Shown here one piece after another: positions 9,761 through 62,521 of a stretch of 64,000 nt of DNA (positions are counted from its first letter, which is position 1; the number at the start of each line of letters is the position of its first letter). Position numbers and translations under genes: made by a program. The DNA is from Escherichia coli (GTDB lineage: Bacteria; Pseudomonadota; Gammaproteobacteria; Enterobacterales; Enterobacteriaceae). Location of the stretch: assembly GCF_044324785.1 (NCBI RefSeq), contig NZ_CP172127.1, one strand, 5' to 3'. The notes under the pieces are model-generated. The model saw only the letters and a program-made list of their open reading frames with translations, did no database searches and was not told the DNA's origin.

Positions 9761-10954
9761 CTAAAGCGCACCGGCCTTCTGGCGTGCGGTAACAAAGGTC
9801 AGTACGCCAGCGCAAAGGAGCAGCACGCTACTCATAGCAAACGTGCTCTGCCAGCCAAGGCGGTCAAATACGATGCCTCCTGCTGTTGATCCAAGGGCGA
9901 TGGCGAGCTGAATCACCGCGACCATGAGCCCGCCTCCGGCTTCGGCGTTGTCAGGCAACGTACGCGCAATCCATGTCCACCATCCGGTTGGCGCGGCGGT
10001 GGCCAGCATGCCCCAGAGTCCTAACAGCAGCGAGACCGTCCAGACGTGATGCCCGGTAAGCATCAGACCGATAGCAATGACGGCCATCAGTCCGGGTATG
10101 GCCATCAGCGTGGGGTAGAATTTTCTGTTGAGAAATGCCGAAACAACCAGCGTGCCAATAAAACCGGCCACGCCGATAATCAGCAAAATCAACGACAAGC
10201 CTAAGGAATTAACCCGTGTCACCGACTCCAGAAACGGGCGCACATAGGTGAATAGCGCAAACTGCCCCATGAAAAACAGGCCACAAGCTATCATGCCGAC
10301 CACAACCATGCGGCGGCTAAATAAGCGGAATACCGCGCCAAGTGACGTGTGGCTTTTATTCGCATCCATACTGGGCAGGCTGATGCACTGCCAGATAAAG
10401 GCGACAACCGCGATGGGCACCAGGCACAAGAAAGCGCCTCGCCATCCGACCGTAGCCCCCAGATAGCTTCCCAGCGGTGCGGCCACGACCGTCGCCAGCG
10501 CATTACCGGCGTTGAAAATTGCCAGCGCACGCGTGACCTGATGCTGCGGCACCAGACGAATCGCCGTTGCCGCTGACATCGACCAGAATCCGCCAATAGC
10601 CACACCAATCATCGCACGACCGACCATATACATCAGATAACTGGAAGCCAGCGCAATAATAAGCCCCGATACGGCCATCAGAACCGTCATCCCCAGCAGC
10701 AGGAACTTACGATTCATCTTTCCAGCTAGCGTTGAAAGCGTCAGGCTGGTCAGAACCGCCAGCGCGCCGGAGATAGCAATCCCCTGCCCTGCCAGCCCCT
10801 CCGTCACGCCTAAATCGCGGGTAATCGGCGTGAGCAGGCTGACGGGCATAAATTCAGAAGCAATCAGCACAAACACGCACAGGGTCATGGCAAAAATACC
10901 GCCCCAGTATGCGTGCTGATGATGAGGTGATGGTGTTTGGCTTAGTGTCGACAT
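9761..10954 (-). CDS. MFS-family transporter (12 predicted TM segments)
   Basis: 397-aa highly hydrophobic ORF with the repeated helix pattern typical of major facilitator superfamily transporters. Confidence 0.75.
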   Translation of the reverse strand: MSTLSQTPSPHHQHAYWGGIFAMTLCVFVLIASEFMPVSLLTPITRDLGVTEGLAGQGIAISGALAVLTSLTLSTLAGKMNRKFLLLGMTVLMAVSGLIIALASSYLMYMVGRAMIGVAIGGFWSMSAATAIRLVPQHQVTRALAIFNAGNALATVVAAPLGSYLGATVGWRGAFLCLVPIAVVAFIWQCISLPSMDANKSHTSLGAVFRLFSRRMVVVGMIACGLFFMGQFALFTYVRPFLESVTRVNSLGLSLILLIIGVAGFIGTLVVSAFLNRKFYPTLMAIPGLMAVIAIGLMLTGHHVWTVSLLLGLWGMLATAAPTGWWTWIARTLPDNAEAGGGLMVAVIQLAIALGSTAGGIVFDRLGWQSTFAMSSVLLLCAGVLTFVTARQKAGAL

Positions 10955-11029
10955 AGTGAAATTTCACAAAGATCAGGATAAAAGCCACCTGCCATAGACC
11001 GGTGGCTTTGCATCAATTCAGGAGAGGTT

Positions 11030-12187
11030 TTATTTCAGTTTGGTCTGGAAAAATTGCTCGAACTTCGCGAAAGGTATTTTTCCGGCCACGTTATCGTACA
11101 GGTCCACGTGATTTGCCCCTGTTACCACCACCAACTCTTTGTCTTTACTGCCAACCGCCTTGTAAGCATCTTCAGCAAAATAGCGTGAATGTGCTTTCTC
11201 ACCGGTCACAATCAGCGTCGGAATGGTGATTTCACTGGCGTAGCTCAACAGCGGCATATTCATAAATGACAGCGGCATCGTTGCCGTCCACGCCCCGGTA
11301 GAGTTAACGGAACGTTCGTGGAAGCCGCGCGGCATGCGATAGTAGTCAAAGAACTCTTTCAGTACCGGATGAGGATTTGCCGGCAGCGTTTCTGGCAGAA
11401 TACGCTCGCCCGCACTGACCTTGCCGTTGCTGTCGACATTAATATCATGACCACCGTGAGCGAACGTTCCGCTCTGCGCATCCTTCCAGCGCTGTTCATT
11501 CAGATATTGCAGAACAGCACGACGGTCGGCGGTAGAATAACGGTCTTTGCCATCCCCCACACCATGGCCCATCGCCCGGCTCATGTCATACATCACGCTG
11601 GTAGCTACCGCTTTAACGCGGGTATCCATCGCCGCGTCGTTCAGCGCCATGCCGCCCCAGCCACAAATACCGAGCAGCCCGATACGGTTGCGATCTACCT
11701 CTTTTTGCAGCCCTAAGAAATCCACCGCCGCGCTGAAATCTTCAGTGTTGATATCCGGTGAGGCGACGTTTCGCGGATAGCCGCCACTTTCCCCGGTGTA
11801 AGAAGGATCGAACGCCAGGGTAACAAACCCTCGTTCCGCCAGCGTCTGCGCATACAAGCCGCTGGATTGCTCTTTCACCGCGCCAAATGGCCCACTGACC
11901 GCAATCGCCGCCAGCTTGCGATCGCCACGGTCTTTAGGCAGGTAAAGATCGCCCACTAAGGTGATGCCATATCGGTTCGGGAACGAGACTTTACGGTGAT
12001 CGACTTTCTGGCTCTCGGCGAACGTTTTATCCCATTTATCTGTCATGGACACAGGGGCATTAGGATTGGTTGAATCAGCATAACTCATTGTCGTGACTCC
12101 ACTTAATGATGCGAAAAGCAGCATGGTCGGCATCGCGGTTTTTAGCGTTCGGGTGAAGGCTTTCATAAAAATCCCCATAAAAAACAA
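11030..12187 (-). CDS. Secreted alpha/beta hydrolase (dienelactone-hydrolase-like)
   Basis: Nucleophile-elbow-like motif GICGWGG; signal peptide MKAFTRTLKTAMPTMLLFASLSGVTTMSYA if translation starts at the internal ATG at 12166; upstream in-frame ATGs at 12178 and 12187 are alternatives. Confidence 0.7.
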   Translation of the reverse strand: MFFMGIFMKAFTRTLKTAMPTMLLFASLSGVTTMSYADSTNPNAPVSMTDKWDKTFAESQKVDHRKVSFPNRYGITLVGDLYLPKDRGDRKLAAIAVSGPFGAVKEQSSGLYAQTLAERGFVTLAFDPSYTGESGGYPRNVASPDINTEDFSAAVDFLGLQKEVDRNRIGLLGICGWGGMALNDAAMDTRVKAVATSVMYDMSRAMGHGVGDGKDRYSTADRRAVLQYLNEQRWKDAQSGTFAHGGHDINVDSNGKVSAGERILPETLPANPHPVLKEFFDYYRMPRGFHERSVNSTGAWTATMPLSFMNMPLLSYASEITIPTLIVTGEKAHSRYFAEDAYKAVGSKDKELVVVTGANHVDLYDNVAGKIPFAKFEQFFQTKLK

Positions 12188-12352
12188 CAGAGAGATACAG
12201 GTTTCCGACGGACAACGCTGCGGTGCTTTACTTTGATGGGGTCATTATAGTGAGCAGAATTAGTGCTGATTAGGGGGCGATTAATGCTAAGATTAATACC
12301 ATATTGTTATAAATTAATGCGGAGATTGCCGGCATGAAGGAGGGATGTTTCA

Positions 12353-13237
12353 ATGGCGAAAAGGGAGAACTATAACGAGCTGTACCTGTTTATGCAGGTG
12401 GTGCGAGAAGGCAGCTTTACCGCAGCGGCTCAGCGGCTGGGTCTTGCTCAGTCAGGAGTCAGCCGTTCTGTTCGCGAGCTTGAAGAAAGGCTGGGCGTCC
12501 AGCTGCTAGTGCGCACCACGCGTAAACTGTCGCTGACACAAGCAGGCGAGCAGCTCTACCAGAAGACGGCATCTGGATTTGAAATGTTAGATCTTGGGCT
12601 TGCCACGCTGGCGCACTATCGAGAGACGCCCTCCGGCACTGTGCGTATCAATGCCAGCCAGCACGCGATTGATAAATGCCTGCTGCCAAAGCTGGCGGTA
12701 TTTAAACAGCGATATCCTGATATCCGGCTTGAACTGATAAATGAGAGCCGGTTCGTCGATATCATCGAGGAAAGATTCGATGCAGGTGTCCGCCTGGGGC
12801 CTGAAGTCGGCCAGGGTATGGTCGCGGTACGCATCACGCCCGATATGGAGATGGCAATTGTGGGGACTCCGGAACATTTTCGTCGCTATGGTTTTCCGCA
12901 AACCCCGGCGGATTTAAAGGCGCATCCCTGTATCGCCTATCAGTTTGCCGACGGCAGCGTATACCAGTGGGAACTCAATCAGGATGATAAAAAAATCACT
13001 CATCGCCCTGAAGGGCAATGGGCCTTATCCGACAGCTATATGGAAGCAGAAGCAGCCCGGCTGGGCCTCGGATTGGCCTATGTTCCTGTTGAACTGGTCG
13101 CGGATGATTTAGAACACGGTAAGCTTATCAGGGTGTTGCAGCGTTACAGCCTGCGAATGGAGGGATTGTTTCTCTATTACCCTCATCGCAACGTCTCCCC
13201 CGCCCTGCGGATGGTCATTGATACATTGAAAATCTGA
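12353..13237 (+). CDS. LysR-family transcriptional regulator
   Basis: 294 aa; N-terminal HTH with the LysR signature (FTAAAQRLGLAQSGVSRSVRELEERLGVQLLVRTTRKLSLTQAG) and a C-terminal substrate-binding domain. Confidence 0.85.
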   Translation: MAKRENYNELYLFMQVVREGSFTAAAQRLGLAQSGVSRSVRELEERLGVQLLVRTTRKLSLTQAGEQLYQKTASGFEMLDLGLATLAHYRETPSGTVRINASQHAIDKCLLPKLAVFKQRYPDIRLELINESRFVDIIEERFDAGVRLGPEVGQGMVAVRITPDMEMAIVGTPEHFRRYGFPQTPADLKAHPCIAYQFADGSVYQWELNQDDKKITHRPEGQWALSDSYMEAEAARLGLGLAYVPVELVADDLEHGKLIRVLQRYSLRMEGLFLYYPHRNVSPALRMVIDTLKI

Positions 13238-13679
13238 ACGTTAACAACGACCGACTCTTCACTGTGCAAAATTGTGTCAGGTAGTCCCTCTGCGTTCAAT
13301 TCCAGGGTCTGTACACCCTGCTTTGAGCGAGAAAGAGGGGACTATCCAGCAATGGAGATCACCCAAAAGAAAAAACCACCAGGCTCCCTCGACAACCTTC
13401 ATCCGGGCATTTAGCCTCAATCAACATTTTTATATCTGTCAGGTTACTTCATTATGAAAACTGATCATCATCGTTGTTTTTGTTGCAATAGTAGAATACG
13501 CGTATTTATTCCTCCATCTCTATTAATAACGGCAATAAACTGTTCACTTCACTGATATTTAAAATATACATCCTTTTCAAGCTGTTCAGCGGCGTAAGAA
13601 AAAGTATTAATTATGAATTCGACGATTTAACCATTTCTGGCTGATTGGTAATCATCTGTGATTAATGCTGGTCTATTGA

Positions 13680-14600
13680 TTACGCCAGCACCCTCTCTAG
13701 CTTATTCACCGCCGCCACATACTTCGCCGGATTTTTATCTTTCAGCACCGCCAGATTACGTTGCTTCCAGCGAATAGCCGGAAGATGCTGAATTTCAGGA
13801 TAGCGATACCGCGACCAGTCAGGGCTGTTTTGCTTAAAACTGAGCAAGAACTCGCGATCCAGATCCGTAAGATGTGACTTCAACGCCTGCGGCAGCAAAG
13901 TCGTTACTGACAGCAGCGATTCCAGCGACGTTTCCTGCTGAGTCATCCCCGAAAATTCCTGAGCATACAGCGTCGTGATCCGCTCTGTATCCCAGTTTGG
14001 GGCCAGCAACTCGGCAATGGGGCGGGGATGGCCTGCCAGATAACAAAGAAAACCGTCAAAGATCTCCCGCATCAGTCCCGGTTTCTCCAGCATATTCAGC
14101 ACATCAAACAGATCGCGCGGGTGCTGACGATCAAGCGCTGCGCAGATTTTACCGCCATAAAGATCCGCCAGCGAGACGACACTCATGGTGGTGAAGCCAT
14201 ACTCCATTTCCACACGTTCGCACACAGGCATTTCTGCCGGAGGCAACAACAGCCCGCGCCAGACCGGGCTAACCTCGATCTTAATCTTTGCATCAGCGGT
14301 ATTCACAATGATGCGCTTTTCATCCGCTTTATTTTCCTGCCGAATCGCGGTGATCCCCGGTCTGCCGTTCAGCGATGCAGTAATCCTCTTCAAAGCGTCG
14401 TTGATAGCCGCCAGATCAGTATCGCGATCCGCAAAGCTCTTATACGCCAGATCAATATCCACCGACAGACGGGGAAAATCCTGCACAAACAAATTGATTG
14501 CCGTGCCGCCTTTCAACGCGAAACAGGACTCCTTCGCCACATGCGGCAGAGCAGCCATCAACAGCTTAACCTGCCGGGCATAACTATCACGCAGATCCAT
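13680..14600 (-). CDS. AbiEii-family nucleotidyltransferase (type IV toxin-antitoxin / abortive-infection toxin)
   Basis: 306 aa; N-terminal nucleotidyltransferase motif LKGGTAINLF...LSVDIDLAY characteristic of AbiEii/DUF1814 proteins; overlaps the upstream gene by 14 bp. Confidence 0.75.
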   Translation of the reverse strand: MDLRDSYARQVKLLMAALPHVAKESCFALKGGTAINLFVQDFPRLSVDIDLAYKSFADRDTDLAAINDALKRITASLNGRPGITAIRQENKADEKRIIVNTADAKIKIEVSPVWRGLLLPPAEMPVCERVEMEYGFTTMSVVSLADLYGGKICAALDRQHPRDLFDVLNMLEKPGLMREIFDGFLCYLAGHPRPIAELLAPNWDTERITTLYAQEFSGMTQQETSLESLLSVTTLLPQALKSHLTDLDREFLLSFKQNSPDWSRYRYPEIQHLPAIRWKQRNLAVLKDKNPAKYVAAVNKLERVLA

Positions 14601-15390
14601 CTTCGACTCCTTCCGGTTTAAATGCGCGTGGAACAGTAATTTGATAATCCGGCTCCAGCCAGCCGCCGGGTATGATTTGCCGCTTTCCCGTACCTGTTTC
14701 TATACCGCTTTGATCAATATACTGAAAATAAGGGTGTCCATTACGCCGGGCAAGGTAAAGCATCACCCGGTTGGTTTTAACCGAATGACTGGCGCAGAGT
14801 AACGCCTGCAATTTACGCGGGCTGAGAAGATTCATCCCCTGAAACAGAGCATCGGCATGTTCGAACGATATCAACGAAGGAACGCCGCAGGCGATCTCAT
14901 ACGCGGCCAGTTCCGGGGCACTGCCTGCTAACTGCCGGTCGCCAATTTTCAGTTCCGTAGTCAATGACGTTACATCTACGGTAAGCCCCGATGTATACAG
15001 CGTGATAAATGTTGCAGATTGTTCGAAGGCAGCAAACCATCCCGGCAGCTTAACGTAAGCCGGAAGCGCGAGCCAGACCTGCGGCTTACCCGGTTCGGTA
15101 TAGTGCGCATGGCCCTGAAACGCAAGGCTGGTTAGCCCCGCCACCCGAACAGGCTTTTCCCACTGTGTTTGAAGGCAGTAAACCGCGTCTACCCAATCCG
15201 GCTCACGGCCCGTCCGGCAGTACACGCCGTGAGCGATGCGCCTGAGCCAGCCATTTTGAACATAGAGATAAGAAAGCTTACGATCTACGCCGTTGCGGGT
15301 AAGCCATGACTGGAGCAGCACCTGACCGGGTAGCGTATTTTGCATCAACCAGTTTAGATAGTTTGGCAAATGTCGCTCCTGAATAGACAT
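14587..15390 (-). CDS. AbiEi-family antitoxin/transcriptional regulator
   Basis: 267 aa, immediately upstream of and overlapping the AbiEii gene; N-terminal segment resembles the AbiEi winged-helix domain (GWLRRIAHGVYCR). Confidence 0.65.
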   Translation of the reverse strand: MSIQERHLPNYLNWLMQNTLPGQVLLQSWLTRNGVDRKLSYLYVQNGWLRRIAHGVYCRTGREPDWVDAVYCLQTQWEKPVRVAGLTSLAFQGHAHYTEPGKPQVWLALPAYVKLPGWFAAFEQSATFITLYTSGLTVDVTSLTTELKIGDRQLAGSAPELAAYEIACGVPSLISFEHADALFQGMNLLSPRKLQALLCASHSVKTNRVMLYLARRNGHPYFQYIDQSGIETGTGKRQIIPGGWLEPDYQITVPRAFKPEGVEDGSA

Positions 15391-15652
15391 TAGTAGAAAT
15401 ATTTAAACCAGTGTAGGTTCAGGGATACGCCACAGCAAGAAATAGTTTACTTATTCCTCATTTTGTCTACTTAAAATTGACATTGAGAAAAAAATACAAA
15501 CTTACCTACATTCAGGCAAAGTGCGACAAATAGACTCGGTCGGTTTAAAGAGAACGTGTAACATAGATGCAAATCGAATAGACATTGTTGCCAGCCGTTC
15601 CAAGGTTGTGGGGCGCTGCATGGCCTGAGACGTGATAAATACAGGGAACACA

Positions 15653-18600
15653 ATGAAATTCACTGAAGATACCCGAGTAAAAATCCCCGTCATCCTCCAC
15701 CTGATACGGCTGGGCTACCACTACCTGTCCCTTAAAGAACAACGCTGGGACAAAGAAACCAATATCTTCCCTGACCTCTTCACCGCTGCGATTGGCAGAA
15801 TAAATCCCGGACTTGTGCCAGACGACATCGGACGCCTGTTAAAAGACCTCACGCTGCTTCTCGACAACGATGATCTGGGCCGCGCCTTCTTCGAAAAACT
15901 CAGTGACCGTTCCGGTATCAAACTGATCGACTTTGATAACTTCAACAACAACAGTTTCCATGTCGTCACCGAACTGACCTGCGAAAACGGTGATGAAGAA
16001 TTCCGCCCGGACATCACGCTGCTGATCAACGGCATGCCGCTAATCTTTATCGAAGTGAAAAAACCCAACAATCGGGAAGGCATCGTCGCAGAACGCAACC
16101 GCATCAACGAACGCTTTAAAAACCCCAAATTCAAACGCTTCGCCAACATCACCCAGTTCATGATCTTCTCCAATAACATGGAGTATGACGACAGCGACCC
16201 GGAGCCGATTCAAGGGGCATTCTACGCCAGCAGCTCTTACAGCAACCCGGTATTCAACTACTTCCGCGAAGAAGAACTCTTCAACCTGACCAACTTACTG
16301 AAACCGCTGTCAGAAGAAACCGAAATCGCCGTCCTGAAAGACAACAACCTGGAAGTGATCCGCACCAACCCGGAATTTCAGACCAACAAAGATCACAACC
16401 GCCCGACAAACCGCCTCTGCACCGCGCTGTTGAGCCGGGATCGGCTGGCATTTATCCTGCGCTATGCGCTGGTGTATGTAGCCGAACCGGGCGGCATCCA
16501 AAAACACATCATGCGCTACCCGCAGCTCTTCGCCACCAAAGCGATTGAGCGCAAACTGAACGCTGGCGTGAAAAAAGGCATTATCTGGCACACCCAGGGC
16601 AGTGGGAAAACCGCATTGGCATACTACAACGTGCGCTTCCTGACAGATTACTTCCAGAATCAGCAGGTGATCCCGAAATTCTACTTTATTGTCGATCGTC
16701 TTGATCTGCTCCAGCAGGCGCAGCGTGAATTCACCGCCCGTGGCTTAATCGTTCACCTTATCGACTCCCGCGAAGCCTTCACCCGCGATATCAAAGCGAC
16801 GCAGGCGCTGCACAACCACCACGGCAAAGCGGAAATCACCGTCGTCAACATCCAGAAATTCCGCGATGACCCGGATGTCGTCACCACCAAAGACTACGAC
16901 ATCAACATCCAACGCGTGTACTTCCTCGATGAAGTCCACCGCAGCTACAACCCCAAAGGGAGCTTCCTGGCGAATTTAAGCCAGTCGGACACCAACGCCA
17001 TCAAAATTGGCCTGACCGGTACGCCTCTGCTGGGCACAGACTACAACTCCCGCGACCTCTTCGGCGACTACATCCACAAATACTACTACAACGCCTCCAT
17101 TGCCGACGGCTACACGCTGCGCCTGATCCGTGAAGAGATCGCCACCAACTACCGGATGATCCTGCAACAGGCGCTAAAAGACGTAGAAGTCAGAATGGGC
17201 GATGTGGATCGCAAAGACATCTACGCCCATCCCAGTTTCGTCAAACCGATGCTGAACTACATCGTCACCGACTTTGCCAAAAGCCGGGGCGCACTGAATG
17301 ATGACACCATCGGCGGCATGGTGATTTGCGACAGCTCAGAACAGGCCAAGCAGATGTTTGAGATATTCAACACTGACTACGCCGAATCGCCCACCGCTGC
17401 CGATGACGTCGCCGAAGAAATGCCGGTATTACAGGCCGCAGAGCCTGCCGCCGTTTACCAGATCCACGCCAAAGAAACGCGGAAAATCAAACGCGCCGCC
17501 CTGATCCTGCACGACGTCGGCAGCAAGCAGGAGCGCAAAGAATGGGTGGATCAATTCAAAGCGGGCGAGATTGACCTGCTGTTCGTCTACAACATGTTGC
17601 TCACGGGCTTTGACGCCAAACGGCTAAAAAAACTCTACCTCGGGCGGGTGATCAGAAAGCACAACCTGCTCCAGGCGCTGACCCGCGTCAACCGAACCTA
17701 CAACCACTTCCGCTACGGCTATGTGGTGGACTTCGCCGACATCCGCCAGGAATTTGACGCCACCAACAAAGCCTACTTCGAAGAGCTACAGGCTGAACTG
17801 GGCGATGAAATGGAGCATTACTCCCGCCTGTTCAAATCAGCGGATGAGATTCGCGAAGAAATCGAACATATCAAAGACGTTCTGTTTAGCTTCGATACCG
17901 AAAACGCGGAAATCTTCACTGACCAGATAAACCAGATCCATGACCGGGAAACCGCGCTGGTACTGAAAAACGCGCTGGCCGACGCCCGCAGCCTGTACAA
18001 CCTGATTCGCCTCCAGGGCAACACTGAGTTTCTCCAGGCGCTGGATTTCAACAAACTCAACATCCTTTACCGCGAAGCCAGCCGCCGCCTCGACTTACTC
18101 AACCTGAAGGCGGATCTGGAACAGGGTGTTGACCTCTCCGGCCTGCTGAACCGGGCGCTGGAAGAGGTGATCTTTGAATTCCACAAAGTGGGCGAAGAAG
18201 AGCTGGTACTGGCCGACGAGCTGAAAGAGACGCTGCGCCGCACCCGCGAAGCGCTGGCCGCCAACTTCGACCAGCAGGACCCGCAGTTCGTCAGCCTGAA
18301 AGACGAACTGGAGCGTCTGTTTAAGAAAAAGAAACTCAGCGAAGTCACCCAGCAAGAAATGGTTGCGAATATCGGCACACTCAATAAAATTCATGGCCGC
18401 ATCAAAGAGCTAAACCGCCAAAATAACCTGCTGCGCCAGAAATACCGTGGCGACGTGAAATACGCGCGTACCCACAAACGCCTGCGCGAGCGCGGCGGCC
18501 TGAGCGAGCCGGAGCGTAAAATCTTCGAAGCACTGCTTGGCGTTAAGCTGGATGCGGATGAAAAAGTGCTGAATAACAGCCAGATACTGAACAACGAAAG

Positions 18601-18751
18601 CTATTTTGAGCGGCAGATTGTGTCATGTGTACTCGATCACTTTGAACAACAGCAGCACATCACCCTGAGTGCGAAAGCGGCTGGCGACATCAACCGCCTG
18701 ATTGTGGCGGAATACCTGAACGAATTTAATACCGGAGCACGTACGTGGTAG
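15653..18751 (+). CDS. hsdR: Type I restriction enzyme, endonuclease/translocase subunit HsdR
   Basis: N-terminal PD-(D/E)xK nuclease motif (IFIEVKK), helicase motif I (HTQGSGKT) and motif II (FLDEVHRS); ATG at 15653 preceded by AGGGA, with an upstream in-frame GTG at 15632. Confidence 0.85.
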   Translation: MKFTEDTRVKIPVILHLIRLGYHYLSLKEQRWDKETNIFPDLFTAAIGRINPGLVPDDIGRLLKDLTLLLDNDDLGRAFFEKLSDRSGIKLIDFDNFNNNSFHVVTELTCENGDEEFRPDITLLINGMPLIFIEVKKPNNREGIVAERNRINERFKNPKFKRFANITQFMIFSNNMEYDDSDPEPIQGAFYASSSYSNPVFNYFREEELFNLTNLLKPLSEETEIAVLKDNNLEVIRTNPEFQTNKDHNRPTNRLCTALLSRDRLAFILRYALVYVAEPGGIQKHIMRYPQLFATKAIERKLNAGVKKGIIWHTQGSGKTALAYYNVRFLTDYFQNQQVIPKFYFIVDRLDLLQQAQREFTARGLIVHLIDSREAFTRDIKATQALHNHHGKAEITVVNIQKFRDDPDVVTTKDYDINIQRVYFLDEVHRSYNPKGSFLANLSQSDTNAIKIGLTGTPLLGTDYNSRDLFGDYIHKYYYNASIADGYTLRLIREEIATNYRMILQQALKDVEVRMGDVDRKDIYAHPSFVKPMLNYIVTDFAKSRGALNDDTIGGMVICDSSEQAKQMFEIFNTDYAESPTAADDVAEEMPVLQAAEPAAVYQIHAKETRKIKRAALILHDVGSKQERKEWVDQFKAGEIDLLFVYNMLLTGFDAKRLKKLYLGRVIRKHNLLQALTRVNRTYNHFRYGYVVDFADIRQEFDATNKAYFEELQAELGDEMEHYSRLFKSADEIREEIEHIKDVLFSFDTENAEIFTDQINQIHDRETALVLKNALADARSLYNLIRLQGNTEFLQALDFNKLNILYREASRRLDLLNLKADLEQGVDLSGLLNRALEEVIFEFHKVGEEELVLADELKETLRRTREALAANFDQQDPQFVSLKDELERLFKKKKLSEVTQQEMVANIGTLNKIHGRIKELNRQNNLLRQKYRGDVKYARTHKRLRERGGLSEPERKIFEALLGVKLDADEKVLNNSQILNNESYFERQIVSCVLDHFEQQQHITLSAKAAGDINRLIVAEYLNEFNTGARTW

Positions 18752-18909
18752 AACTGTAATTTAGAGATAAAACCAAAACCCTGATCGACAGCCTGAAAAG
18801 CATCTGTGCGAACTACGGCCTGGGCAACGACGGTAACGAATTCAAAATTATCACTCAGGCATTCCTGTACAAATTCCTGAACGACAAATTCGCCTTTGAA
18901 GCCAAAAAG

Positions 18910-20382
18910 GTGGATAAAAGCATCGCCAGCGCCGAAAAATGGGAAGTCGCGCTCAATCAGATGAGCGAAGAACAGCGGGATAAACTGCAACTGAAGATGA
19001 GCGCCGACACTGCGCGTCTGAAGCCGCATCACTTCATTCAGTATTTATACAACCGTCAAAATGAGGCCAATTTCGCCACCACCTTTGACGACACCCTGAT
19101 GGACATCGCCGCCACCAACAACGACGTCTTCGCGGTCAAAACTGACGGCGGCGCGAAAGTGGTGCTGTTTGAGCGCCTCAGCCAGTACATCGCCGACGAA
19201 TCAAGGCGCGACGACTTCTGCCGCGCCATTATCAACAAACTGGCCGATTTCAGCTTCGAGCGCATCTTCACGCAGAAATTCGACTTCTACGCCACTATCT
19301 TTGAATACCTGATCAAAGACTACAACAGCAACTCCGGCGGCAAATACGCGGAATACTATACGCCCCACGCCGTGGCGCGCATCATGGCGGAAATCCTGGT
19401 GCCGAAAGCACAACAGGGCGTAGTGCGCAACGTAAGCTGTTACGACCCGTCCGCCGGTTCCGGCACCTTACTGATGAACGTGGCGCACGCCATCGGGGAA
19501 GATCGTTGCAGCATCTTCGCGCAGGACATCTCGCAGAAATCCTCCAGCCTGCTGCGCCTGAACCTGATCCTCAACAATCTGGTGCATTCGATCCCCAACG
19601 TGATTCAGGGCAACACCATTCTGCACCCGTTCCACAAGGACGGCAGCGCGCTGAAACGCTTTGACTATATCGTCTCTAACCCGCCGTTTAAGATGGATTT
19701 CAGCGATTTCCGCGACGATTTGGATAGCAAGGAAAACCAGCAACGTTTCTTTGCCGGGATACCAAAAATCAAAGCCAAAGCCAGGGACAAAATGGAAATT
19801 TACCAGTTGTTCCTGCAACACATCATTTTCTCGCTGAAACCGGATGGTAAGGCGGCGGTCGTGGTGCCGACCGGGTTTATCACCGCGCAGTCGGGCATTG
19901 ATAAAGGGATTCGCGAACATCTGGTGAAAAACAAGATGCTGGCGGGTGTGGTTTCCATGCCGTCGAATATCTTCGCCACCACCGGCACTAACGTATCGAT
20001 CCTGTTTATTGACGCCAGCAACAAAGAGAAAGTGGTGCTGATCGACGCCTCGAATTTAGGTGAAAAGGTCAAAGACGGCAAAAACCAGAAAACGGTGCTG
20101 ACCGAAGAAGAAGAGCAGCGCATCTGCGAAGTGTTCAACAACAAGTGGAGCGAAGAGGATTTCTCGGTGGTGGTCAGCTATGACGAGATCGCCGGGAAAA
20201 ATTACTCGTTCAGCGCCGGGCAGTATTTCGATGTGAAAATTGAATACACCGATATGACGCCGGAACAGTTTGCCGCGAAGATGAACGGGTTTACGGAGAA
20301 TCTGGAGAGTTTGTTTAGCCAGTCGCGCGAGCTGGAGGTGGAGATTAAAAAGCAGATGGCGGGGCTGAATTTCCATGGTTAA
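18910..20382 (+). CDS. hsdM: Type I restriction-modification methyltransferase subunit HsdM (start uncertain)
   Basis: AdoMet motif DPSAGSGTLL, catalytic NPPF, and the conserved EYYTPHAVARIMAEIL segment. The annotated start is a GTG; about 150 bp of in-frame HsdM-like sequence lies upstream without a canonical start (see findings). Confidence 0.8.
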   Translation: MDKSIASAEKWEVALNQMSEEQRDKLQLKMSADTARLKPHHFIQYLYNRQNEANFATTFDDTLMDIAATNNDVFAVKTDGGAKVVLFERLSQYIADESRRDDFCRAIINKLADFSFERIFTQKFDFYATIFEYLIKDYNSNSGGKYAEYYTPHAVARIMAEILVPKAQQGVVRNVSCYDPSAGSGTLLMNVAHAIGEDRCSIFAQDISQKSSSLLRLNLILNNLVHSIPNVIQGNTILHPFHKDGSALKRFDYIVSNPPFKMDFSDFRDDLDSKENQQRFFAGIPKIKAKARDKMEIYQLFLQHIIFSLKPDGKAAVVVPTGFITAQSGIDKGIREHLVKNKMLAGVVSMPSNIFATTGTNVSILFIDASNKEKVVLIDASNLGEKVKDGKNQKTVLTEEEEQRICEVFNNKWSEEDFSVVVSYDEIAGKNYSFSAGQYFDVKIEYTDMTPEQFAAKMNGFTENLESLFSQSRELEVEIKKQMAGLNFHG

Positions 20383-21493
20383 AACTATTGGTGATGCTTG
20401 TAATATTAGTACAGGTAAACTTGATGCAAACCAGGCTGTAAAAGGTGGTGATTATCCGTTTTTTACGTGCGCAGAGTTCCCTGAACAAATCGATCATTAT
20501 GCATTTGACGGCGATGTGGTTCTTATTGCTGGCAATAATGCAAGAGGAAACTTTCACGTAAGCAGGTATCAAGGGAAATTTAATGCTTACCAGCGAACCT
20601 ATGTGCTTACAGCCAAACATGGTTATGATATTGATTATATTTACTATGCCTTAAGACTTGAATTAAAGCGATTGCGAGAAAAATCTCAAGGCTCGCAAAC
20701 AAAGTTTCTGACAATGCCGATTTTGACCAGTATATCGCTAGGAAACCTAGTCGAGACTGAACAATCGACAGTTTCAAGAGTATTAAAAATACTGGATAAA
20801 AAAATCGCTCTCAACAATCGTATCAACGCCGAGCTGGAAGCGATGGCGAAAACACTGTATGACTACTGGTTTGTACAGTTTGATTTCCCTGATGCCAACG
20901 GAAAACCGTATAAAACCTCCGGCGGGAAGATGGTGTACAACGCCACGCTGAAACGGGAAATTCCGGCGGGGTGGAATATTAAAAATCTTGGCGATATAGC
21001 GGAACTATATCAGCCTAAGACCATTTCAGGTAACGATTTTATTGATGATGGTGAATATCTTGTATATGGAGCCAACGGTATTGTAGGAAGATTCAATAAA
21101 TATAACCATGAAGAACCTGTCGTTACAATCACCTGCCGTGGAAATACGTGCGGCAATATAAACGTCACACGACCATATTCATGGATTACAGGGAATGCAA
21201 TGGTGGTTAAGCCAAAGTTTAACTATATTTCACCTTATTATATTTATAATTTATTGTCGATATCGGAAGTTGATAAAGTCATTACTGGCTCTGCTCAACC
21301 TCAAATTACGCGAGCAAACCTAGCTCCACTTAAGGTTGTTGAACCAGCAGAGGACATTACGCAAAAATACTCAAAGTCTGTTGATGCTTTTTTTAAAAAG
21401 CATATCTCAATATTAGATGAAAATGATAATTTATTAAAACTCCGCGACTGGCTCCTCCCCCTGCTTATGAACGGACAGGTCACGGTCAAATAA
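20375..21493 (+). CDS. hsdS: Type I restriction-modification specificity subunit HsdS (two target-recognition domains)
   Basis: 372 aa; overlaps the hsdM stop by 8 bp; two variable AT-rich domains separated by a central conserved spacer (LDKKIALNNRINAELEAMAKTLYDYWFVQFDFPD) and a C-terminal conserved helix (LLKLRDWLLPLLMNGQVTV). Confidence 0.8.
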   Translation: MVKTIGDACNISTGKLDANQAVKGGDYPFFTCAEFPEQIDHYAFDGDVVLIAGNNARGNFHVSRYQGKFNAYQRTYVLTAKHGYDIDYIYYALRLELKRLREKSQGSQTKFLTMPILTSISLGNLVETEQSTVSRVLKILDKKIALNNRINAELEAMAKTLYDYWFVQFDFPDANGKPYKTSGGKMVYNATLKREIPAGWNIKNLGDIAELYQPKTISGNDFIDDGEYLVYGANGIVGRFNKYNHEEPVVTITCRGNTCGNINVTRPYSWITGNAMVVKPKFNYISPYYIYNLLSISEVDKVITGSAQPQITRANLAPLKVVEPAEDITQKYSKSVDAFFKKHISILDENDNLLKLRDWLLPLLMNGQVTVK

Positions 21494-21673: not shown

Positions 21674-21835
21674 GTGTCGTGCGTTCGGCTACACCTCAAT
21701 GGCGGGCCGGGCGGGGGCGTCGCAAGACGCGCCGGTTTCCTGTAACGCCGGTAAGGCTAACCCCGTCCGGTTCCGCCACCCATGAGATTAGCCTCTCTAG
21801 TGGCGGACATAATAAACCGTTACAGGAGATGCCCT

Positions 21836-22306
21836 ATGGCTACAATCCTCACCCCTGACTGCGATTTACTCGATCTGTTATCCGTTCCCTTCAATGCCAC
21901 CACGGATTTTACTGTCCTTGCCGATTACTGCACCCGCTTCGCCGAAACCCTGATAGAAACCGACGATCCCGCGCTGCGGCTGGCGCTGAGCGGACGGCTT
22001 CACGCGGCTCTTGCGCTACTGCAACCCACACTGCATGACCCCATCCCGCCGCATCTTACCGAAAGCCTGACCGTTAATACCCTTCCCGCCACACCAGAGC
22101 ACTTTATTTCCGAACCCGATTCCTTGTGCGAATACTGCCTCGCACTGCTCCAGCTTCTGCTGGAACGCCCGGCGGAGCCAAAAATGGAGCAAACCCTGAC
22201 CGGGCTGCTGTGTGAGCTGGTCTGGAATTTCACGGAAGGACTCAAATCCCCGCGCTGGCTGCGTACCGCCGACGGCGTAAAATTTATCAGTGAGGTGGCC
22301 GCATGA
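21836..22306 (+). CDS. Hypothetical protein (157 aa from ATG 21836), unknown function
   Basis: ATG at 21836 preceded by CAGGAG; Leu/Ala-rich, no recognisable motif; its stop overlaps the start of the downstream Ner-like fragment (ATGATG). Confidence 0.5.
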
Positions 22307-22655
22307 TGCAACAGGACTGGCATTCCACCGACATTATCGCCACGCTGAAAAAGCGGGGAACGTCTCTGGCGGCGCAGAGAAAAACTCATTGCGGACGCGC
22401 TGTAAATATCGTCAGAAATCATCTGGCCTTCAAGGTACTTTGATAGCAAAGGCAAGCAGGCTGGTTCAGTCCCGTGTTTCTCTTCTTGCATTTTCAGAAA
22501 TGGGAGGCTGGGAGTCTATCGAAATGGTTCGTCGATATGCTCACCTCGCACCTAATCACCTTACCGAACACGCACGGCAAATAGACTCGATCCTGAACCC
22601 ATCGGTCCCAAATTTGTCCCAGTCAAAAAATAAGGAAGGTACTAATGATGTGTAA
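22303..22655 (+). pseudogene. Fusion remnant: frameshifted Ner/Nlp-like HTH gene fragment joined to the 3' end (~190 bp) of a tyrosine-integrase gene
   Basis: The first 24 codons ([24 protein letters not shown]) match the Ner/Nlp family N-terminus as I recall it, then the frame breaks. From about 22460 the DNA and translation ([36 protein letters not shown]) parallel the C-terminus of the intact int at 62240-62431, and the stop sits at the same offset from the tRNA-derived repeat. Confidence 0.55.
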
Positions 22656-22715
22656 CTTATTGATTTAAATGGTGCCGATAATAGGAGTCGAACCTACGAC
22701 CTTCGCATTACGAAT
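22652..22715. repeat. Prophage attachment-site repeat (attL): 64-bp direct repeat containing the 3'-terminal 46 nt of tRNA-Thr (thrW)
   Basis: Identical 64-mer to 62428-62491 (GTAACTTATTGATTTAAATGGTGCCGATAATAGGAGTCGAACCTACGACCTTCGCATTACGAAT); the sequences diverge on both sides. Confidence 0.85.
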
Positions 22716-23735: not shown

Positions 23736-26105
23736 TTAAATAAACATAAGAATAAACATCAGAAGTTCTTCGTATCTGATACCATACTGATAGCCAGCAG
23801 GTTTAATAATAACCTGCCTTCCTGTGTAATATTCCTCGTCGTACCACTCTCCTGTTTCATTGTTTTTAACACTCCTAATCAATACCTCTGGAGCATAAAT
23901 ATCATCCCATTCATCATAACACCAGAACGCATAGTTATTAGGGTCAAGACCGTATTTTCTGAGAATATTACCTACAGTTTGTGCACCAACGCCGAAATGA
24001 ATCCGAGCGCCATCACTCTTGATCTTTACTGCATCTTTAAATTTAAACCTCCAGATATTTTCCTTTATTTCAAGCGCAGCAAGACGCTCTGATTCTGTTG
24101 TTTTCTCGTCAGCCTCAATACGCAATTTCAGCTCTTCATTCGACGTGTTGATACTGCCAGTACCAGCGTATACCTGTGACCATCGAAATGCTGATGTTCC
24201 GTTTGAGTTAACATTATCAACAGTTGGTTTTATAAGGCCAGAAAAATGAGTTTCAGGTGTATTAATATATGTATATGCACCTGCTGTACTACGAGTCCTT
24301 AACTCAAAGCTGTCTATATCAACACCAGTCCTACGAATTATAAGGAAGTTATTTCCTGCGGAACCAGTATCGGTTTGAGTGCTAACAGACAATCCGTTTC
24401 GTGTATCAATACGTATATTCTTCCCGTTCTCCAGCGAAGCAGAATTATGTAGATACAGCGAGTTGTCAGTGTAGAGATTGTGTTTACCTACATTGCTAAA
24501 TGTATAAGTATTGCTTGTGTTATCACTGTTCCTATGGAATTGCTGAAGAGTGTAGGCAGAAGATGCTCCGTATCCATCACAATGGAAATTTCTGCACAGC
24601 TGCAAATCGAATAACAATACGGTGTCAGCATTAATGCTCACATTATTAAAGCATGTTGCAAAGTTGGCACCATACTGTGAATTGGAATCGCCAATCTGTG
24701 CGCACACATCAAGCAAACCAAAAGTTACATTGGTAAAGTTATTTGCATCACCGGCGTCAAGAACAATCCCTTTCTTAGTCCCTGAATACCCTCTGGCAGT
24801 GCCGATCTCAACTCCCTGGAATGAACACACGCGAGCACGACTAAGCTTAAGACCAACCCATTCCAGACCATGATCGTAACCTTTTGCTGCGCGGTGAATA
24901 AACATACCATTCATGATGAGAAGGAATCTGTTATCAAGCCGTACTGGTTCAAGTTGGGCATTAATACCAACATTTGTGCATATACATTCACCATAAGCAT
25001 AACGATTCGTTTCAAATATACGATCATCAGCGTCGTAAATGCCTCGTAATGCCTTGGCGGCATCAATATTAAGCAATGTAAAATATGTCTTCTGCTTAAT
25101 TTCAAAAAAATTTGCAACATTATGCGTTGTGATATCACTCACACGCATTGATAAAATCCCCTCTTCTGGAGCGGTGCGAATGAATCCATCAAGGAACTGT
25201 TCATTATAACTTTTGGCTATCTGATAACATCCAACAGCATCAATGCGTTCGATTGTGAACTGCCAACTATCACCACAGTTAAAAGACCATCTCCAGCCGT
25301 ATTTCTGAGCGAATTCATCATATTCAACATTTGCAGGTTCAGAACAGAAAGATAAAAATCTAAATGTTGGTTTTGGCCTTAGATGGTTAATCCCGGAACC
25401 TCTTGGGGTATATATGGCATTATCTCCATTCCCACCTTTTGTTTTAACTGTAAGGTGACTTAAACCAAATTCAATATCATATTTAGTTGGTGCGGCGAAA
25501 ACAAAGCCGTCTTTTGGTGATGTGGTATTGTCAAACACAATAACCGTTTCACCCTGCCCATCACCGCACATATTTACTGGTGGTATATTAACGGGGCCAG
25601 TCAAACTATATGTTCCAGTTGGCACATATAGTTTTCCACCCTCTCCAATAGCATTTGCCGCTGCAATAAATGCCGCCGTATCATCGTTAACACCGTCACC
25701 TTTCGCCCCATAATGCTGTGGCGTAATTAACAGCATACGGTCAGAAAAAATCTCTGTCCTAAGTTGATCAGGATCGTATTTTAATACATTTGGAAAATAA
25801 AACTGCTGAGTGCCATATGCATCATATACAGCCATAGAATGGCCTTGCACGGTAACGAATTTGGCAATCTGTCCGTTATATACCGGATAACCAGCAGCGT
25901 TAATAATGATTGGTTGAGAAACAGGAACGTGAGAACCGTCTTCGTTCTCTACATAAACCGGAATCTGGTTTTCAGGATTTACCGGGTCAGTGTCAATTTT
26001 ACCGATATAAATTTTTCCATTAGCATTTGCTTTAAACGAGCGAGCTAAAGTGAATAACTGACTTGGTTGTGAAACAACAACATTGGCATTTATTGAATCT
26101 GTCAT
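23736..26105 (-). CDS. Phage tailspike protein (P22 gp9-like head-binding domain with a divergent receptor-binding body)
   Basis: N-terminal ~115 aa ([18 protein letters not shown]...[12 protein letters not shown]...[13 protein letters not shown]...VLKYDPDQ) match the P22 tailspike head-binding domain; the remainder is unrelated and AT-rich at the 3' end. Confidence 0.85.
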
Positions 26106-47392: not shown

Positions 47393-47468
47393 TGGTGCTG
47401 GTTAACGGACTTGAACCGCTAGCCATTCGCTTACAAGGCGACCGCTCTACCATTGGAGCTAAACCAGC
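47393..47468 (-). tRNA. Prophage-encoded tRNA (76 nt; anticodon read as UGU, Thr)
   Basis: Hand fold of GCTGGTT...AACCAGCACCA: 7-bp acceptor stem, D-arm GCTC/GAGC, T-arm AGCGG-TTCAAGT-CCGTT, CCA encoded; the anticodon stem has one mismatch. Confidence 0.55.
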
Positions 47469-47473
47469 ATGTT

Positions 47474-47548
47474 TGGCGGGACAGCGTGGACTCGAACCAC
47501 GATAAGAAGGTTAACAGCCTTCCGTAATGACCTTTATACGACTGACCC
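47474..47548 (-). tRNA. Prophage-encoded tRNA-like gene (75 nt; anticodon read as GUU, Asn), possibly degenerate
   Basis: T-arm CGTGG-TTCGAGT-CCACG and anticodon arm GAAGG-CTGTTAA-CCTTC are clean; the acceptor and D stems each have one mismatch; CCA encoded. Confidence 0.45.
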
Positions 47549-61046: not shown

Positions 61047-61394
61047 GTGGAAGAAGAAATCTTCACTCGTGAAGAGGCAGCGTCGTATCTGAAGGTAGAC
61101 AAAGGCACTATCACGCAGTGGATACGAAGTGGACGACTTCAGGCCGCAAAGATAAATCCAGATAAACCTAAAAGCCCATATCGCATTTGCAAGTCAGACT
61201 GCATTGCGGCGCTTAAGTCTGTGAGACACAATAGCGCGGTGAATGCGGTTGATGTGCAGGAGGTTAAAGCATGTCAATCAAACTACGCGGTGGCACGTGG
61301 CACTGTGATTTCGTCGCGCCAGATGGATCAAGAGTTAGACGCTCTCTTGAAACATCGGACAAAAGGCAAGCGCAAGAACTTCACGATCGTCTAA
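61047..61394 (+). CDS. xis: Excisionase (Xis-like HTH)
   Basis: 115 aa; N-terminal REEAASYLKVDKGTITQWIRSGRL HTH; immediately upstream of and overlapping int. Confidence 0.65.
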   Translation: MEEEIFTREEAASYLKVDKGTITQWIRSGRLQAAKINPDKPKSPYRICKSDCIAALKSVRHNSAVNAVDVQEVKACQSNYAVARGTVISSRQMDQELDALLKHRTKGKRKNFTIV

Positions 61395-62431: not shown

Positions 62432-62491
62432 CTTATTGATTTAAATGGTGCCGATAATAGGAGTCGAACCTACGACCTTCGCATTACGAAT
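62428..62491. repeat. Prophage attachment-site repeat (attR): 64 bp overlapping the thrW 3' end
   Basis: Identical to 22652-22715. Confidence 0.85.
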
Positions 62492-62521
62492 GCGCTGCTC
62501 TACCAACTGAGCTATATCGGC
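62446..62521 (-). tRNA. thrW: tRNA-Thr (anticodon CGU)
   Basis: Reverse complement reads GCCGATATAGCTCAGTTGGTAGAGCAGCGCATTCGTAATGCGAAGGTCGTAGGTTCGACTCCTATTATCGGCACCA; canonical cloverleaf; sits beside proA. Confidence 0.9.

Follow-up and report, generated by a model that had tools for sequence, protein, structure and literature searches.

A known AbiE toxin-antitoxin pair of Escherichia coli and its probable place in a decayed thrW island

An overlapping gene pair next to hsdRMS

The window analysed here is a 64,000-nucleotide stretch of Escherichia coli DNA in which two overlapping minus-strand genes, abiEi and abiEii, stand between a LysR-family gene (12353-13237, plus strand) and a type I restriction-modification locus (Table 1). 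The open reading frames lie where an earlier note on this DNA had placed them, one of 306 aa at 13680..14600 and one of 267 aa upstream of it at 14587..15390, and they do have 14 bp in common. The antitoxin gene is directly 5' of the toxin gene on the same strand, an order kept in the orthologues; the 14-bp overlap recurs in the annotated genes of E. coli N3 and in the Pectobacterium and E. lignolyticus orthologues, while in Buttiauxella it measures 8 bp. The surroundings need some correction. The pair had been described as convergent on nothing, but it converges on the LysR-family gene; and although the reported adjacency to hsdRMS is borne out by Pfam and PADLOC, abiE is not co-directional with this operon: it diverges from hsdR across an intergenic region of about 260-280 bp.

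Table 1. Features of the abiE locus and its flank, in window coordinates
Feature	Coordinates	Strand	Description	Basis
abiEii	13680..14600	-	306-aa DUF1814 nucleotidyltransferase toxin (predicted)	Pfam, PADLOC, motifs, AF2 fold
abiEi stop/abiEii start overlap	14587..14600	-	14 bp; bicistronic operon, probable translational coupling	
abiEi	14587..15369	-	260 aa from TTG; predicted antitoxin and putative autorepressor	Pfam, PADLOC, AF2 fold
Dyad AATGTC-N11-GACATT	15369..15391	-	Surrounds abiEi Shine-Dalgarno and TTG; putative function	Orthologue alignment
Non-coding region	15370..15596	.	Probable abiE promoter/operator, possibly a divergent promoter	Cross-locus homology
Palindrome TGTCTAC-N5-ATTGACA	15464..15482	.	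Candidate operator, degenerate here; putative function	Orthologue alignment
hsdR	15653..18751	+	Type I restriction subunit	Pfam HSDR_N, SWI2_SNF2, ResIII, T1R_D3-like; PADLOC REase_I; RefSeq N3 orthologue
hsdM	18745..20382	+	TAA at codon 5 (18757-18759)	Translation; alignment with N3
hsdS	20375..21493	+	Specificity subunit	Pfam Methylase_S, two stretches; PADLOC Specificity_I E 4.9e-93
Right end of the old island	22290..22715	+	Integrase C-terminal remnant and displaced thrW 3' fragment	Pfam, RefSeq N3, repeat

Both abiE frames are real genes rather than chance open reading frames, given the strength of their profile matches (E values of 6e-36, 6e-35 and 1e-28 in Pfam, 3e-116 and 4e-78 in PADLOC) and at least 8000 homologues of the toxin. 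Family names agree across Pfam, PADLOC and RefSeq; NCBIfam holds no model matching either protein. The pair is thus already known, an ordinary annotated AbiE toxin-antitoxin (abortive-infection) pair, and as a discovery it matters little: it is annotated in RefSeq, recognised end to end by PADLOC, and has an AbiEi_3-type relative validated in Serratia.

The earlier note was right to call the upstream gene AbiEi-like, but the length of 267 aa it gave, counted from the ATG at 15390 that opens the longest frame, probably does not hold. The true start is most likely the TTG at 15369, which gives 260 aa: this codon is kept in all six aligned orthologous loci, as is an AGGAG/AGAGG Shine-Dalgarno element lying 6 nt 5' of it, and the ATG is found in three of the six. 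The RefSeq gene measures 783 bp, the homologue clusters have 260 aa, and residues 1-10 of the model have a pLDDT of 54.

The predicted toxin and antitoxin

Profile searches confirm the proposed identity of the 306-aa protein as AbiEii. It matches Pfam PF08843 (AbiEii/DUF1814) over residues 14-221 with E 6.3e-36 and 124.9 bits (cut-off 22.5), and PADLOC PDLC02290 over residues 5-305, nearly its full length, with E 3.4e-116. The GG...SVDIDL motif quoted earlier is present in residues 29-53, LKGGTAINLFVQDFPRLSVDIDLAY. With motif definitions taken from Dy et al., 2014, all four DUF1814 nucleotidyltransferase motifs, I to IV (hG[GS]-x15-DhD with an Arg in motif II; K...R, of the KLxAaxxR kind; +DxxD), can be recognised, and the residues that form them do not vary across 25 aligned homologues: K30-G31-G32, x15, D48-I-D50; R44; S46; K151-ICAALD-R158; and R162-DLF-D166. 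The nucleotidyltransferase residues, on whose presence the earlier assignment depended, are therefore all in place; mutating the equivalent motifs abolished the toxicity of Streptococcus agalactiae AbiEii (Dy et al., 2014). The AF2 model (pLDDT 92.7) has MenT4 as its best PDB match (6Y56, E 1e-7, TM 0.61-0.63) and also matches JHP933 (E 1e-6), and the fold it predicts is of the Pol-beta nucleotidyltransferase type. Other nucleotidyltransferase identities, namely cGAS/CD-NTase, OAS, TUTase and ANT(2''), were ruled out: their matches stay under TM 0.35 with E over 1e-3, where MenT4 and JHP933 reach 1e-7 and 1e-6.

Ser46 lies two residues N-terminal of the first catalytic Asp (S46-V-D48) and is itself invariant among the 25 homologues. 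The spacing is that of T65/D67 in S. agalactiae AbiEii and of T39/D41 in MenT1, and S78 of MenT3 may be compared. The model places S46 in a loop that joins helix 31-39 to strand 48-53, a topological position like that of T65 in the apo model of S. agalactiae AbiEii. Sequence and model together make Ser46 a candidate phosphoacceptor.

The upstream protein matches Pfam AbiEi_3_N (E 1.3e-28) and AbiEi_3 (E 5.8e-35), both far over the cut-off, and PADLOC PDLC02227 nearly full length (E 3.9e-78); an AbiEi_4 match falls under the Pfam threshold. Its AF2 model (pLDDT 90.6) is closest in the PDB to Rv2827c (1ZEL, E 2.5e-9, TM 0.54-0.58), with S. agalactiae AbiEi (6Y8Q) following at E 7.7e-7, and the protein consists of an N-terminal winged-helix domain and a COG5340-type C-terminal domain. 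Its family, AbiEi_3, is one that we take to be the present-day Pfam name of DUF2893. DUF2893 genes are listed among the COG5340 members (Dy et al., 2014). A loop at residues 92-103, the internal stretch modelled with least confidence, carries a near-invariant Q92-G93-x-x-H96-Y97. In type VII systems a conserved antitoxin loop enters the active site of the toxin, and loop 92-103 may be equivalent to the D85-I87 loop of S. agalactiae AbiEi.

Searches of PDB sequences with both proteins, by single sequence and by profile, returned no relatives and chance matches only (RNase I, a sugar-binding protein, a diterpene synthase), so that the link to characterised proteins rests on the Pfam and PADLOC profiles and on predicted folds whose TM is near 0.6.

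By extension from its relatives, AbiEii would add nucleotides to tRNA 3' ends, as the MenT toxins do; aminoacylation would be blocked and translation halted, and cell growth would therefore stop. AbiEi would silence the toxin, most likely by binding AbiEii and inducing auto-phosphorylation of Ser46, the type VII mechanism demonstrated in S. agalactiae AbiE, MenAT1 and MenAT3, and it would also repress the operon via inverted repeats 5' of abiEi. Should antitoxin control lapse upon phage infection or loss of the island, the toxin would halt growth of the cell, which would abort the infection and/or stabilise the island. For the E. coli pair, this scheme extrapolates all of its properties (toxicity, target, nucleotide specificity, phage phenotype) from the related systems.

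The auto-phosphorylation step in particular may not apply, because the closest solved structures are MenT4 and MenA4, the one MenAT pair in which neither a complex nor phosphorylation is detected. We thus consider, as a tentative alternative to type VII, that neutralisation here follows MenAT4, with no stable complex and no toxin phosphorylation, through a type IV or some other mechanism. Each of the two proteins independently finds its MenAT4 counterpart (6Y56 for the toxin, 1ZEL for the antitoxin) as the best match, with S. agalactiae AbiEi ranking lower, and MenT4 itself is found unphosphorylated and elutes separately from MenA4. A specific relationship to MenAT4 does not, however, follow from a TM near 0.6 and 15-17% identity, the S. 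agalactiae AbiEi:AbiEii complex is absent among the PDB matches, and a serine stands at the phosphoacceptor position in 25 of 25 homologues and is also conserved in the AbiEi_3-type system of Serratia. We find the MenAT4-type reading rather unlikely on these grounds and keep phosphorylation of Ser46 as the working mechanism. A subtype that is structurally closest to MenAT4 and yet carries the candidate phosphoacceptor serine could help to settle whether auto-phosphorylation occurs in MenAT4-like pairs.

A decayed island at thrW with exchangeable cargo

Beyond abiE, hsdR, hsdM and hsdS can all be recognised, the hsdR frame reaching 5' to a GTG at 15632, but hsdM is broken and the type I set is not intact in the window. 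A premature stop, which the earlier note had missed, interrupts hsdM at codon 5; this codon is GAA in E. coli N3, whose HsdM has 545 aa, and the gene is full length (1638 bp) in N3 and XJ23PTE1. What remains is a frame at 18910-20382 without some 55 N-terminal residues, to which PADLOC MTase_I aligns from profile position 57 onward. With such a stop in hsdM, restriction-modification next to abiE may no longer function. The possibility that other strains share the stop was rejected: not one of 576 genomes matches exactly over the 151 bp concerned, and both inspected genomes have the intact gene. It may also be a sequencing error.

The right end of the island preserves an integrase remnant with a weak Phage_integrase match, confined to the last 35 profile positions; in RefSeq, E. 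coli N3 has here an 'integrase, missing N-terminus' adjoining tRNA-Thr. A 64-bp repeat (22652-22715 is the same as 62428-62491) marks the displaced thrW fragment.

Among 5426 complete E. coli genomes, 832 (about 15%) carry the AbiE pair, at 95-99% identity and with coverage of at least 80% in every case, and RefSeq names the proteins AbiEii and AbiEi in every record inspected. Orthologues at 73-92% identity occur across the Enterobacterales among the matches listed. This bears on the idea that the pair is itself an inactive relic of the mobile element, like the integrase fragment and the interrupted hsdM. The decay around it speaks for a relic, but both frames are full length when compared with orthologues of other genera, every catalytic and family-invariant residue is kept, the start codon, the Shine-Dalgarno sequence and the overlap are conserved, and identity stays high across all 832 genomes; we regard a relic as very improbable. 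In our judgement the two genes very probably form an intact AbiE module of the AbiEi_3/DUF1814 subtype, a cassette lodged in the decayed integrative island at thrW.

The place beside this cassette is occupied by hsdRMS in 548 of the 832 genomes, by a DRT reverse transcriptase in 259 and by DUF4747 in one, and orthologues in other genera adjoin a type II restriction-modification system or Lamassu. The defence-island setting suggested earlier holds, since the same slot takes up a DRT in so many genomes. Our literature search found nothing specific that links thrW to AbiE; a study of E. coli hotspots reports AbiE at three of them, and thrW is not named in the portion of its text that was searched.

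What the pair does for its host may be less a matter of phage than of inheritance: it could serve chiefly as an addiction module, stabilising the thrW island and its adjoining cargo by post-segregational killing, rather than as a stand-alone defence against phage. AbiE conferred stability on an unstable plasmid (Dy et al., 2014) and reportedly helps to stabilise a streptococcal ICE (PMC11062541); at thrW the integrase has been lost but for its remnant, yet AbiE is kept in all 832 genomes while the cargo varies. S. agalactiae AbiE expressed in E. coli, moreover, gave no protection against 32 coliphages, so that a defence phenotype cannot be assumed for the E. coli pair. On the other hand, phage phenotypes are produced by AbiE of L. 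lactis and by further DUF1814 pairs (RlegTA, SanaTA), and deletion of a CFT073 AbiE pair, of uncertain kinship to the present one, altered susceptibility to several phages. Orthologues also occur as solo cassettes with no obvious mobile element, and stabilising and anti-phage roles are not exclusive. A predominantly addictive role is therefore possible but in our view doubtful. The thrW island, whose second slot alternates between type I restriction-modification and DRT, is a natural test case for AbiE as a stabiliser or a regulator of the cargo next to it.

The DNA between the two divergent units is of interest for the second of these roles. Homology between hsdR-type and reverse transcriptase-type loci runs as far as window position 15596, about 230 bp 5' of abiEi, and parts of this region are kept in Pectobacterium and E. 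lignolyticus. AATGTCWAT occurs three times in the 64 kb, on the minus strand and always within 15370..15596, the region from which the motif was defined post hoc. At -113 to -95 from the TTG, four of six orthologous loci have the palindrome TGTCGAT-N5-ATCGACA, perfect in Pectobacterium and degenerate in the window; the TGTC...GACA arms of the dyad around the start codon are kept in six of six. A generic repeat search of the intergenic region gave short two-copy families only, which became readable after cross-species alignment. The promoter and terminator scan yielded nothing above shuffle expectation, with no sigma-70-like promoter on the minus strand of abiE. Its sole promoter-like match, at 15483-15512, is on the plus strand in the hsdR direction, and the palindrome abuts it. 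Terminator-like sites from the same scan are not meaningful.

That this non-coding DNA stays with AbiE whether the cargo is hsdR or DRT, together with the three AATGTCWAT copies and a palindrome beside the promoter-like site, suggests that AbiEi might repress or co-ordinate the neighbouring defence operon in addition to its own. If true, such control would tie release of the toxin to de-repression of the adjoining system. In its full form, in which the AbiE cassette is a conserved anchor that both stabilises swappable defence cargo and couples to it transcriptionally, the proposal strikes us as improbable.

Relation to characterised AbiE and MenAT systems

Abortive infection by AbiE was founded on the pNP40 system of L. 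lactis. With the AbiEi-AbiEii pair of S. agalactiae, the window pair shares an antitoxin-first operon, the four nucleotidyltransferase motifs, a Ser or Thr two residues before the first catalytic Asp, an antitoxin made of a winged-helix and a C-terminal domain, and residence on a mobile or integrative element. The antitoxins differ in Pfam family (AbiEi_3 in the window, DUF4095 in S. agalactiae) and in length (260 against about 195 aa), and the operator sequences are unrelated.

MenAT4 of M. tuberculosis (toxin MenT4, Rv2826c; antitoxin MenA4, Rv2827c), the best solved structural match for both proteins, likewise joins a DUF1814 toxin to a winged-helix/COG5340 antitoxin, and the sizes are similar (292 and 293 aa, where the window has 306 and 260). 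Identity is 15-17% only, with no match at the level of sequence. MenT4 is specific for GTP and is neither phosphorylated by nor bound to its antitoxin.

Other AbiEi_3-type lineages of E. coli (the P0155 and P0168 clusters; CFT073 c3681-c3682) have the same domain architecture, but their antitoxins are 45-46% identical to the window's, their toxins have 305 aa, and they occupy other loci: the P0155 pair lies in a BREX/PLD island adjoining an integrase, and c3681-c3682, possibly a member of P0155 or P0168, adjoins capsule genes.

The last comparison is with AbiE-2 of Serratia sp. ATCC 39006 (AbiE-A2/AbiE-T2). It differs from the window pair in genomic location, and the study that describes it shows no phage-defence phenotype; its toxin probably belongs to the 305-aa lineage, about 54-56% identical to the window toxin. 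Like the window pair it is enterobacterial and bicistronic with an AbiEi_3-family antitoxin, and AbiE-T2 is a DUF1814 toxin whose Ser46, aligned to S78 of MenT3, has the same number as the serine of the window toxin. In E. coli, AbiE-2 lowers viable counts 10^6-fold, rescue comes from the cognate antitoxin only, and tRNA levels are altered on induction.

Identity and extent of the gene pair

The AbiE pair is real, was correctly read in the earlier note and is already known. Both ORFs placed there by that note are found in the window with their 14-bp overlap (14587-14600), and the motif it quoted, LKGGTAINLFVQDFPRLSVDIDLAY, is present in the 306-aa protein; the remaining ORFs listed in the interval overlap abiEi or abiEii, on either strand or in another frame, and are regarded as by-products of the abiE coding sequence. 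The family assignment is borne out by profiles, RefSeq names, catalytic motifs and predicted folds. In Pfam, the toxin matches AbiEii/DUF1814 (PF08843, E 6.3e-36, 124.9 bits, cut-off 22.5) and the upstream protein matches AbiEi_3_N (E 1.3e-28) and AbiEi_3 (E 5.8e-35). The PADLOC models for AbiEii (E 3.4e-116) and AbiEi (E 3.9e-78) align over almost their entire length; NCBIfam gave no model for either protein. Every RefSeq record inspected carries the names 'nucleotidyl transferase AbiEii/AbiGii toxin family protein' and 'type IV toxin-antitoxin system AbiEi family antitoxin'. It is this public annotation, together with recognition by defence-finding tools and a subtype with a validated relative, that makes the pair a known one.

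The window DNA is E. coli chromosome, and 832 of 5426 complete genomes carry the 1711-bp pair, each with at least 80% of it covered and almost all at 95-99% identity. Among the matches listed, orthologues 73-92% identical are found in Salmonella, Klebsiella, Citrobacter, Pectobacterium, Brenneria, Photorhabdus and Buttiauxella, and a second tier (toxin ~55%, antitoxin 45-50% identity) in Serratia, Yersinia, Erwinia, Vibrio and others.

The antitoxin length of 267 aa in the earlier note stands for the longest ORF but probably not for the protein, which is most likely 260 aa from a TTG start at 15369. This is because homologue clusters are 260 aa long, the RefSeq gene measures 783 bp, the TTG and an AGGAG/AGAGG 6 nt before it are kept in 6/6 aligned orthologous upstream regions (the ATG at 15390 in only 3/6), and residues 1-10 of the AF2 antitoxin model have a pLDDT of 54. 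The overlap with abiEii is unchanged by this choice.

Features of the abiE locus and its surroundings (window coordinates unless a locus is named)
Feature	Position	Strand	Remark
abiEii ORF	13680..14600	-	306 aa
abiEi, longest ORF	14587..15390	-	267 aa
Dyad AATGTC-N11-GACATT	15369-15391		surrounds Shine-Dalgarno sequence, 6/6 loci
Candidate operator palindrome TGTCGAT-N5-ATCGACA	15464-15482		-113 to -95 from TTG; degenerate in window
Prophage-bounding direct repeat, 64 bp	22652-22715 and 62428-62491
Prophage integrase	61271-62431
Intact thrW	62446-62521
Reverse transcriptase in hsdR slot, divergent from abiEi	L002 (E. coli AR_0067) 9986-13195		replaces hsdRMS
DUF4747 protein and 165-aa protein without family, in hsdR slot	L003 (E. 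coli TB06052) 9993-11491

An island at thrW with an exchangeable neighbour

The pair lies in an integrative island at tRNA-Thr(CGT) that has since decayed. In the annotation of E. coli N3, matched in the window, paoABCD, an MFS transporter, a hydrolase, a LysR-family gene and a ykgR fragment precede abiEii and abiEi, and hsdR, divergent from abiEi, is followed by hsdM, hsdS, a hypothetical gene, an HTH fragment, an integrase remnant and thrW. The ykgR fragment, a partial 'small membrane protein YkgR' pseudogene in RefSeq (~13458-13526, offset from N3), falls in the 440 AT-rich bp that separate abiEii from the LysR-family gene; on this side the AbiE cassette has its edge somewhere between the fragment and 13680. 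Neither Pfam nor PADLOC recognises the 174-aa ORF that follows hsdS and precedes the integrase remnant (21782-22306); since N3 and AR_0067 both have a hypothetical protein annotated at the equivalent position, the ORF is a conserved component of the island. A P22-like prophage of ~40 kb was later inserted at thrW, setting the old AbiE/hsd island apart from the intact tRNA; it encodes a tailspike with P22 head-binding, pectate-lyase-like and endosialidase-like parts (23736-26105) and two tRNA genes, Thr(TGT) and Asn(GTT), at 47393-47548.

The gene facing abiEi varies. The abiEi-hsdR junction is found in 548 of the 832 pair-carrying E. coli genomes, whereas 259 have a 1069-aa reverse transcriptase there (PADLOC RT_UG5-nitrilase, a DRT, E 0; no Pfam match at E <= 0.01) and one has the DUF4747 pair, neither member of which is in PADLOC and which may be an uncharacterised defence candidate. 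Orthologous cassettes adjoin a type II R-M system in Pectobacterium and Lamassu LmuACB in Buttiauxella, and an E. coli AbiE paralogue adjoins BREX and a PLD protein; no recognisable defence genes stand alongside the E. lignolyticus cassette. This comparative context across genomes and genera supports the earlier reading of stacked defence genes, and a survey of E. coli hotspots already lists AbiE at three of them. In the slot held by hsdR in the window, small divergent genes without family match lie upstream of orthologous abiEi: a 67-aa gene in E. lignolyticus and Pectobacterium and a 146-aa gene in E. lignolyticus only (L008/L009 7175-7815; L007 6765-6968).

In this strain the type I R-M system beside AbiE may be inactive, or the sequence in error: hsdM codon 5 is TAA (18757-18759) where N3 has GAA, and the next in-frame start, at 18910, would cost ~55 N-terminal residues. 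The full 1638-bp hsdM is present in N3 and XJ23PTE1, and the 151-bp region around the stop is identical in 0/576 genomes.

Candidate operators upstream of abiEi

Homology between hsdR-type and reverse transcriptase-type loci runs through the intergenic region up to 15596, so the non-coding stretch to that point is part of the AbiE cassette. It holds a candidate operator palindrome, found in 4/6 orthologous loci with a perfect copy in Pectobacterium. The promoter scan found no sigma-70-like site on the abiE strand; its sole promoter-like site (15483-15512, + strand) directly adjoins the palindrome and faces hsdR. The 64 kb contain three copies of AATGTCWAT, all of them minus-strand and ~100 bp apart within the abiEi-hsdR intergenic region (15383-15586), against an expectation of ~1.1 for the whole window; because the motif was picked after viewing the region, this clustering is a lead rather than proof. 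AbiEi might act through these putative operators on the exchangeable neighbour too.

Catalytic residues, predicted folds and mechanism by analogy

Dy et al. (2014) defined four DUF1814 motifs, hG[G/S]-x15-DhD with an Arg in motif II (I/II), Lys...Arg (III) and +DxxD (IV), mutation of each of which kills the toxicity of S. agalactiae AbiEii. The window protein has all of these, as G31-G32, fifteen residues, D48-I-D50, with R44, K151...R158 and R162-D-L-F-D166, invariant in 25 homologues down to 52% identity. Equally invariant in these is S46, two residues before D48, spaced like T65/D67 of S. agalactiae AbiEii and T39/D41 of MenT1, in which the phosphoacceptor precedes the first catalytic Asp; MenT3 S78 has been aligned with S46 of Serratia AbiE-T2, whose antitoxin is of the AbiEi_3 type (Serratia paper).

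PDB sequence searches with both proteins, single-sequence and profile, returned nothing meaningful. The AF2 toxin model (pLDDT 92.7, pTM 0.90) best matches M. tuberculosis MenT4/Rv2826c (6Y56, E 1e-7, TM 0.61/0.63), with H. pylori JHP933 also among its best matches; cGAS, OAS and TUTase folds fall far behind these two. The antitoxin model (pLDDT 90.6, pTM 0.85) best matches Rv2827c (1ZEL, E 2.5e-9) and also S. agalactiae AbiEi (6Y8Q, E 7.7e-7). As Rv2827c (MenA4) and Rv2826c (MenT4) are neighbouring partners, the two window proteins independently indicate one known pair.

MenT toxins extend the tRNA 3'-CCA with nucleotides, blocking aminoacylation, and S. agalactiae AbiEii uses UTP. S. agalactiae AbiEi represses its operon via inverted repeats and binds AbiEii, inducing auto-phosphorylation at T65, for which reason AbiE has been reclassified as type VII. 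Serratia AbiE-2, with an AbiEi_3 antitoxin, kills E. coli 10^6-fold (Serratia paper), alters tRNA abundance and is rescued by its own antitoxin only. From this literature on relatives we infer that the window AbiEii would be a nucleotidyltransferase toxin acting on tRNA, and AbiEi a DNA-binding antitoxin that would also neutralise it, with S46 phosphorylation as the favoured route. The pair may serve phage defence or stabilisation of the island. The main alternative is neutralisation as in MenAT4, to which the fold matches point, and where MenT4 is the exception in that it neither forms a complex with its antitoxin nor is phosphorylated. The window pair resembles MenAT4 in fold, but its subtype retains the serine at the phosphoacceptor position.
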